Shown here one piece after another: positions 27,420 through 28,411 of a stretch of DNA of 44,416 nt. The position numbers were made by a program, and so were the translations under genes. Every line of letters begins with the position of its first letter. The stretch's first letter is position 1. The notes beneath the pieces were generated by a model that saw only the letters and a program-made list of their open reading frames with translations, had not been told where the DNA came from and ran no database searches. This DNA comes from Escherichia phage UHP65: the sequence record PQ511047.1; one strand, written 5' to 3'.

Positions 27420-27498
27420 AGCTGAATCCTCATAATTGGTTGCAATCCTGGCTGAGCGGTGTAATACTAAAACTCAACCAAATATAGGGGATGATACC

Positions 27499-27717
27499 AT
27501 GAAAACTTTAATTATGATTTGTGCGGTTCTTTTGTCAGGTTGTGCCAACATGCCGTCTAAAATCTGCGACGCGACATACATGAATAGTGGCATGGAGTAT
27601 TCCGTCCCGGTGTTTGGGGTTGCAGACGATAGCGGTCATAAAATGTTACGGGCTGGGTATCCGTTCAACTTCCAGTATGTGTCGGTCGACCACTTCAAAA
27701 GCACCACCTGCAAATAA
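27499..27717 (+). CDS. small lipoprotein (72 aa), candidate Llp/Cor-like superinfection-exclusion protein
   Basis: Signal peptide with lipobox LLSGC; opposite strand to flanking tail genes; own terminator; divergent from tail fiber gene. Confidence 0.55.
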   Translation: MKTLIMICAVLLSGCANMPSKICDATYMNSGMEYSVPVFGVADDSGHKMLRAGYPFNFQYVSVDHFKSTTCK

Positions 27718-27737
27718 GCCCCTTTCGGGGCTTTCTT
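27718..27737 (+). terminator. rho-independent terminator
   Basis: GCCCCtttcGGGGCtttcttc. Confidence 0.6.
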
Positions 27738-28411
27738 CAATCATAATTGGCGGTGTTAATCGCCATAATCGCGTTGCCGTTGTTAGTATACCCCACCACA
27801 TCCCCCGTGGCGTTCCCCGACGACGCTGCCGATATACGCGTTCGCGACCCATCAAATCTGGCCCCCGTGTACGCCGTTACCGATATTACTTGCGGCTGGC
27901 CCTGCACAAAAAACCGGATCAGCGTAGACCCCAATATGCCCGGAGCGACGGCGTAGCTGCCGTTTAGCGTCTGGTCAATGTTAATCCCCCCGTTAGCGCC
28001 TGGCGATCCGACGGTAACTAAATCACTTAGTACGCGACTCTCGTTAGTAAGCACTAGCTTCCCCGTCTTATCCCAAATAGCGAAGCCCCACCGCGGAAGG
28101 GTCTGTGGGAATATGGCAAAGATGTAAGCCGTCATCGTGAAGCCTTGCCCGAATGGATTGCTGGCGCTCACCTTCACCACATTACCAACGCGAGAAGACC
28201 CCACGACGGTCGGCTGGGCGGTGTGCGTAGTTTTCACAAACGCTATTGCAGGGTAGTCACCGCCCAAATTAATATCGGCAGCCGCCGATTGCGCAGTGCC
28301 GTTAGCCGAAGACCCAACAACCACACGGCGGAATAGACAAAACGGCGTCGATTCTGGCGTGATAAACGGGTTGCCGTTTGGTAAGTCAATCAACGCGCCG
28401 TAATTAGCCAT
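27737..28411 (-). CDS. putative tail protein (224 aa), Gly/Ser/Thr/Asn-rich
   Basis: Lies between J-like gene and tail fiber; ATGA overlap upstream. Confidence 0.45.
   Translation of the reverse strand: MANYGALIDLPNGNPFITPESTPFCLFRRVVVGSSANGTAQSAAADINLGGDYPAIAFVKTTHTAQPTVVGSSRVGNVVKVSASNPFGQGFTMTAYIFAIFPQTLPRWGFAIWDKTGKLVLTNESRVLSDLVTVGSPGANGGINIDQTLNGSYAVAPGILGSTLIRFFVQGQPQVISVTAYTGARFDGSRTRISAASSGNATGDVVGYTNNGNAIMAINTANYD

Follow-up and report, generated by a model that had tools for sequence, protein, structure and literature searches.

A predicted Cor exclusion lipoprotein within the FhuA-type receptor cassette of Escherichia phage UHP65

Escherichia phage UHP65 carries, inverted within its tail module, a 72-codon gene that by sequence is an ordinary and typical orthologue of the phage exclusion lipoprotein Cor rather than a merely Cor-like gene. 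We consider it very probable (roughly 85%) that the product is a lipoprotein of the outer membrane and puts out of action FhuA, the ferrichrome transporter that serves the phage itself as terminal receptor. The gene is a fixed part of the known FhuA-type receptor cassette (100-aa, 224-aa and cor genes) downstream of gpJ. The window analysed is a stretch of 44,416 nucleotides (PQ511047.1), to which all positions refer unless stated otherwise.

According to published work, Cor proteins of Escherichia coli prophages exclude FhuA-dependent phages and render FhuA functionally inactive. The function assigned here is transferred from such temperate-phage Cor proteins and from Llp of phage T5. No experiment on the Cor of UHP65 or of any other Dhillonvirus was found in the literature searched, and the assignment is therefore a well-supported transfer from homologues.

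Genomic context

UHP65 has a Dhillonvirus (HK578/SO1-like) genome. Positions 1–24000 are collinear with phage jat (MN850650) in one piece from base 1, at 93.3% identity (24000 versus 23999 bases) and with almost no indels. Neither integrase nor repressor annotation was seen in the parts of the genome examined, and the phage is of the virulent Dhillonvirus type. The genes flanking cor are:

25989..27419, minus strand: lateral tail fibre, 476 aa, with a C-terminal Peptidase_S74 chaperone domain; divergent from cor
27737..28411, minus strand: 224-aa protein (PHROG 425) of the FhuA-type receptor-binding locus; convergent with cor
28411..28713, minus strand: 100-aa protein (PHROG 557) of the same locus, between J and the 224-aa gene
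28750..32169, minus strand: J-like central tail fibre or tail tip protein

All four neighbours thus occupy the minus strand and cor the plus strand, in agreement with the earlier note, which had placed a 72-aa plus-strand lipoprotein inside a minus-strand tail module and divergent from the tail fibre gene. The J-like assignment is based on a weak match to NF049904 (lambda_TipJ), well under its cutoff, and on the jat counterpart, which is annotated as a tail fiber protein. Pfam returned no match for Cor, the 100-aa or the 224-aa protein, all of which were identified through NCBIfam and PHROGs. No signal peptide or membrane-spanning segment was found in the 224-aa and 100-aa proteins, and their database names ('membrane associated' and 'outer membrane', one of them in the PHROG category 'moron') look misleading. 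In recent publications the pair is regarded as the locus for binding to FhuA.

With jat, the lateral tail fibre shares 98% identity, but with phage JLBYU60 only 41%, although the J and receptor-binding locus of JLBYU60 is 99–100% identical; such divergence is in keeping with the hypervariability known for lateral fibres. A strong, terminator-like bidirectional hairpin (25962–25991; 13 pairs followed by a T-run) sits between the 3' end of the lateral fibre gene and a convergent plus-strand gene ending at 25964.

The cor gene and its product

The coding sequence, its signal peptide and its ribosome-binding site were located as follows:

27499..27717 (stop included), plus strand: cor, 72-aa phage exclusion lipoprotein Cor, from ATG to TAA
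27499..27543, plus strand: lipoprotein signal peptide MKTLIMICAVLLSGC, recognized by sequence and hydropathy
27532–27543, plus strand: lipobox LSGC, part of the signal peptide
27541–27543, plus strand: codon of Cys15, the predicted acylated residue
27486..27491, plus strand: Shine-Dalgarno AGGGGA, read from the sequence, 7 nt before the ATG

The protein begins MKTLIMICAVLLSGCANMPSK, and its complete translation is MKTLIMICAVLLSGCANMPSKICDATYMNSGMEYSVPVFGVADDSGHKMLRAGYPFNFQYVSVDHFKSTTCK. Judged by sequence, it carries a class II (lipoprotein) signal peptide in which Lys2 and a hydrophobic core (maximum Kyte-Doolittle value of 2.69 over residues 4–14) precede the lipobox L12-S13-G14-C15. Cleavage is predicted between MKTLIMICAVLLSG and the cysteine, leaving Ala at position +2, and the Asp inner-membrane retention signal is absent. 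In E. coli, residue +2 decides between inner- and outer-membrane fates of lipoproteins through Lol sorting; by this rule, the outer membrane should be the destination of Cor.

The AGGRGA form of the Shine-Dalgarno sequence is kept in six of seven Dhillonvirus relatives, with Teewinot reading AGAGGA after a 2-nt insertion. A longer, 93-aa TTG-started frame over cor is only a mechanical upstream extension and was rejected on homology and conservation.

Family membership was supported by two profile matches. The NCBIfam equivalog NF047972 (lamb_exclu_cor, 'phage exclusion lipoprotein Cor') scored 59.5 bits against a cutoff of 31 over residues 2–71, and PHROG 1119 ('Cor superinfection exclusion protein') matched the full length (residues 1–72) with an E-value of 1.3e-28. 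Tblastn with Cor found matches in 244 phage records, 76 of them with at least 60% identity; of these 76, almost all of those listed are Dhillonviruses, usually annotated as 'super-infection exclusion protein'. Identity was 50.7% for T1 (7e-15) and about 50% for T1-like phages, 40.3% for phi80 and 41.9% for N15, with phi80, N15 and the HK/mEp lambdoids together spanning 40–45%.

A protein search with the single UHP65 sequence yielded only six close relatives, whereas an alignment with the T1, phi80 and N15 Cor proteins reached 205 sequences. The RAGYPF motif is invariant in a six-sequence Cor alignment that includes T1, phi80 and N15. Across an alignment of 85 Cor sequences, C15, C23, C71, G53 and P55 are invariant, and A52, Y54 and F56 are at least 90% conserved. 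Purifying selection is evident from a dN/dS of 0.14 among seven Dhillonvirus orthologues.

The Cor of Dhillonviruses is accordingly not new as a gene: it is annotated in dozens of relatives, mostly as superinfection exclusion protein. Several GenBank records (SM_S22, at 1501–1746; Shigella phage 1b; PGN590) have missed or replaced cor even though the intact gene is present, the replacement consisting of two short 'hypothetical' open reading frames on the wrong strand.

The lower GC content that the earlier note had judged by eye was borne out by calculation. The cor reading frame has 45.7% GC and the unit 27420–27740 has 45.5%, against 54.6% for the genome and 55–56% for the neighbouring genes; the corresponding z-scores are −2.2 and −2.6, which places the reading frame in the bottom 3.4% and the unit in the bottom 1.2% of equally sized windows.

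Transcription signals

Both a promoter-like region and a terminator had been proposed for this gene in the earlier note, although neither appears in the consensus scans; they were therefore examined by a separate scan and by folding, and each proposal is upheld, the second with a refinement:

27440..27445, plus strand: −35-like TTGCAA of the putative cor promoter, within TTGGTTGCA (scan and conservation)
27460..27468, plus strand: extended −10 TGtAATACT of the putative promoter, 17 nt after the −35 (scan and conservation)
27716..27733, no strand assigned: GC-rich hairpin where cor and the convergent 224-aa gene meet, putative terminator (folding and a compensatory change)

The putative promoter scores 8 of 12 plus the TG relative to a sigma-70-like consensus, and its absence from the consensus scan is explained by the 9/12 threshold applied there. 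Sites of this class occur seven times in the 44-kb window on both strands together, which corresponds to about 0.006 expected per intergenic region of 79 nt. The −35 and the −10 are invariant in seven Dhillonviruses despite many synonymous changes in the coding part of cor, and the −35 hexamer is retained in Dhillonviruses with other receptor cassettes. Upstream of T1 cor, the arrangement TTGCAA-17-TACAAT ends 29 nt before the ATG, compared with 30 nt in UHP65. Transcription of UHP65 cor is predicted to start near 27475.

The hairpin has a 7-bp stem (AAGCCCC/GGGGCUU) with centroid energies of −12.1 kcal/mol on the plus and −13.5 kcal/mol on the minus strand (z about −2.6). It overlaps the TAA of cor, with the 224-aa stop 3 nt away, and in Teewinot one stem pair has changed from G-C to U-A in a compensatory manner; the flanking U-tracts are modest to weak. 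Given its position near the 224-aa stop and the equally good folding of the opposite strand, the hairpin is probably a bidirectional intrinsic terminator common to cor and the 224-aa gene. The consensus terminator scan did not list it, perhaps owing to the extension of the stem, which leaves too few T residues in the tail.

An antisense sigma-70-like match (CTGACA-16-CATAAT, 10/12; 27511–27538, minus strand) was observed inside the signal-peptide codons of cor. It is the best match in a scan of 25.5–29 kb, points to the lateral tail fibre gene and faces the cor promoter; its −10 is invariant among relatives and its −35 is variable. This match could serve the lateral tail fibre gene as a promoter of its own, downstream of the hairpin that is probably bidirectional, and it could equally be a chance occurrence within a conserved flank. 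A common recombination flank accounts at least as well as an antisense promoter for the fact that the signal-peptide codons do not vary even in their nucleotides.

Predicted fold

An alignment-based AlphaFold2 model of Cor has a mean pLDDT of 84, exceeding 90 for residues 21–70, and forms a small five-stranded beta-barrel. Among solved structures, the predicted fold matches T5 Llp best; in a Foldseek search of the PDB, the best TM-score likewise went to 8a60_B (Llp), with Tudor domains first by E-value and all E-values above 0.04, none of them significant. Llp was also the sole phmmer match in the PDB (E 0.13, 16 bits), and the structural alignment of the two proteins gives 24% identity. Foldseek against BFVD returned the Dhillonvirus protein first; lipoproteins and a 'receptor-blocking protein' came next, several of these matches presumably from T5-like phages.

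The invariant Cys23 and Cys71 of Cor correspond to Cys9 and Cys57 in mature numbering, matching the placement of Cys11 and Cys58, whose disulfide ties the termini of Llp together (PMC9586334). On the strength of the model, Cor is probably a small beta-barrel of the Llp type with its termini tied by a disulfide. Two recent papers, PMC13164509 among them, view Cor and Llp as one structural family. By analogy, then, Cor may work like Llp, although it is classified as Cor and, strictly speaking, falls outside the sequence family of Llp.

Receptor cassette and proposed mechanism

The 100-aa and 224-aa proteins of UHP65 are 98–100% identical to their counterparts in JLBYU60 and Teewinot, and its J protein is 99% identical to that of JLBYU60. 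Both of these phages have been shown experimentally to need FhuA, specifically its loop L8 (PMC10373560). The genes of about 100 and 224 aa downstream of J are a proposed receptor-specificity locus of small siphoviruses, alongside which superinfection exclusion genes have been suggested (PMC8594841; bioRxiv 10.64898/2026.04.02.716166). In the BASEL phage collection, the cassette formed by Cor and the two upstream genes tracks FhuA use, and this extends to Dhillonvirus (PMC13164509). Because the adjoining receptor-binding proteins are nearly identical to those of FhuA-dependent phages, FhuA is the likely target of UHP65 Cor.

Under this reading, host RNA polymerase would transcribe cor early from the sigma-70-like promoter, without depending on the late tail operon, which lies on the other strand. 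Export of the precursor would be followed by acylation of Cys15 and by cleavage through signal peptidase II. The domain of 57 residues, which a Cys23–Cys71 disulfide probably holds together, would then bind the periplasmic face and the plug of FhuA and force the extracellular loops EL7 and EL8 inward, as solved for T5 Llp. Inward folding of these loops would remove the L8 surface needed by Dhillonviruses, so that the receptor-binding proteins could no longer dock. The expected outcomes are the exclusion of FhuA-dependent phages, including UHP65 itself, T1, T5 and phi80, and the protection of progeny from being wasted on FhuA in the debris of lysed cells.

A swappable slot and a possible fixed adaptor

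In Dhillonviruses with other receptors, namely TheodorHerzl (LptD) and PTXU06 (BtuB), and in StarDew, the cor slot is occupied by another lipoprotein, and the receptor-binding gene that comes after it differs as well. The promoter and the ribosome-binding site are nonetheless conserved as DNA sequence in all three (27420–27546 in UHP65; about 690–840 in the pieces of the relatives), and PTXU06 and StarDew also keep the signal peptide MKTLIMICAVLLSGC, after which different mature lipoproteins follow. DNA homology to these two phages stops at 27542 and 27546, essentially at the Cys15 codon, and homology to the LptD-type TheodorHerzl stops at 27512. The lipoprotein of the LptD-dependent TheodorHerzl is inferred to be Rtp45-like from its slot and from the receptor of the phage.

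The slot is never empty in the relatives compared, and the lipoprotein is matched to the receptor; cor thus behaves as part of a swappable receptor module and not as an optional extra. Since the promoter is common to the different cassettes, what the earlier note had described as the gene's own promoter-like region appears to be a genus-fixed feature onto which receptor-matched exclusion domains are exchanged. The term moron used in that note is consequently apt in part: the putative promoter, the hairpin and the deviant GC content agree with it, whereas the gene is not a free-standing addition but a fixed component of the receptor cassette.

Synonymous divergence among the same six to seven phages is about tenfold higher for cor (dS 0.51) than for the 224-aa (0.065) and 100-aa (0.050) genes, and in phage bob the same cor is found beside a 224-aa protein that is only 52% identical. 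These two observations indicate separate histories for cor and the receptor-binding genes, and from the sequences recombination appears to separate them. A broader proposal, to which we assign slightly less than an even chance, is that Dhillonviruses maintain a fixed 'adaptor' comprising the promoter, the ribosome-binding site and the signal peptide through the Cys codon, and that receptor switches occur by recombination at this point, swapping the mature domain together with the receptor-binding genes. A non-exhaustive literature search returned no description of a recombination junction at the lipobox cysteine.

Alternative explanations

The closest competitor leaves the molecule and its target unchanged and differs in the benefit: in a lytic phage, the main gain from Cor may be to stop new virions from injecting into FhuA on cell debris, with exclusion being secondary. 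We regard this as an evenly balanced possibility. Exactly this debris-protection role has been put forward for T1 Cor and T5 Llp in virulent phages (PMC11990801), and the virulent type of UHP65, in whose examined parts neither an integrase nor a repressor annotation was seen, points in the same direction. The debris role is nevertheless compatible with superinfection exclusion, as both would follow from one mechanism, and sequence alone cannot separate them. A different mode of action, in which Cor does not jam FhuA directly as Llp does but works by way of, or depends on, further proteins of the outer membrane (porins or OmpA, for example), seems unlikely. A paper by Arguijo-Hernandez et al. 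reportedly describes, as far as its title goes, interactions of Cor with outer-membrane proteins, and the molecular mechanism of Cor itself is stated in the literature as not yet elucidated; set against this, the predicted fold matches FhuA-bound Llp best and the disulfide topology is conserved.

The target itself could differ, with Cor blocking another receptor such as the TonB-dependent transporter BtuB, since Cor- and Llp-like lipoproteins are present in BtuB-dependent phages (PMC13164509) and the BtuB-dependent PTXU06 has the same signal peptide joined to another lipoprotein body. The mature domain of UHP65 is, however, of the Cor type and not of the PTXU06 type, homology to PTXU06 being lost at the Cys codon, and the linked receptor-binding proteins are those of FhuA-dependent phages; we therefore judge blockage of a receptor other than FhuA to be highly improbable. 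The small size of the frame and its lack of a Pfam match would suit a gene without exclusion function, whether a chance open reading frame, a decayed remnant or a lysis (o-spanin) lipoprotein, yet the strong family matches, the low dN/dS, the confidently predicted fold and the position in the tail and receptor locus leave this explanation with a negligible probability. The o-spanin and chance-frame candidates were rejected on homology and conservation, being effectively refuted by PHROG 1119, NF047972 and the dN/dS value. A functional, FhuA-directed Cor remains the preferred reading.

Implications

As a discovery, the gene adds little: Cor is a textbook receptor-blocking lipoprotein, and most of the Dhillonvirus records listed from GenBank annotate the orthologue as such. 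Its practical value lies elsewhere. Cor and the adjoining receptor-binding genes mark UHP65 as probably FhuA-dependent, which is useful for receptor prediction and for the design of phage cocktails, where it matters because cells infected by UHP65 should become refractory to other FhuA phages. The Dhillonvirus protein (72 aa, 51% identical to T1 Cor) would also provide a convenient second system in which to ask whether Cor works by the 'reverse allostery' of Llp.

Comparison with known systems

The layout had been likened in the earlier note to the receptor-blocking lipoproteins Cor and Llp, and this comparison is well founded, given the matches to NF047972 and PHROG 1119, the similarity to the T1, phi80 and N15 proteins and a predicted fold nearest to Llp. 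The nearest known counterpart is T1 Cor, which is 51% identical over its full length and shares the lipobox, the two cysteines of the mature domain and the RAGYPF motif. T1 also has the gene order of UHP65, in which J, a gene of about 100 aa and one of about 224 aa are followed by an inverted cor forming a single-gene unit on the opposite strand. Both phages are virulent, with a cassette of the FhuA type, and the TTGCAA −35 and the 17-nt spacer are common to them. They differ in lineage (T1 belongs to the genus Tunavirus of the Drexlerviridae, UHP65 to the Dhillonvirus lineage), in the −10, which is weaker in UHP65 (AATACT plus TG) than in T1 (TACAAT), and in the upstream flank, which consists of recombination genes in T1 and directly of the lateral tail fibre gene in UHP65.

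The Cor proteins of the temperate phages phi80, N15, HK022 and mEp167 are 40–42% identical to that of UHP65 and score above the curated NF047972 cutoff. In phi80 and N15, cor is positioned after two small genes downstream of J, as in UHP65, and T1, phi80 and N15 all share the order J, 100 aa, 224 aa, cor and tail fibre. The phi80 and N15 genes nevertheless run in the direction of the tail genes, with about 110 bp of intergenic sequence in front of them, and are presumably expressed from the prophage, whereas cor of UHP65 is inverted and belongs to a lytic phage. As T1 cor is inverted as well, reverse orientation is the normal state in virulent carriers; the inversion against the tail genes described in the earlier note is real and not special to UHP65.

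Similarity to T5 Llp (PDB 8A60 chain B, 7QJF) is marginal at the sequence level (24% in the structural alignment; phmmer E 0.13). Llp is moreover paired with the unrelated receptor-binding protein pb5, whereas the neighbours of UHP65 Cor belong to PHROGs 557 and 425. Rtp45 of phage Rtp occupies the same slot and follows the same logic, being a small exclusion lipoprotein encoded beside a receptor-binding protein gene downstream of J; it binds its receptor LptDE, and the resulting conformational change blocks docking of the receptor-binding protein. The mature domains of Rtp45 and of the other lipoproteins in the Dhillonvirus slot are unrelated to Cor and their targets are LptD and BtuB, and in those other Dhillonvirus cassettes the lipoprotein and the receptor-binding gene lie on one strand and are transcribed together, unlike the arrangement in UHP65.
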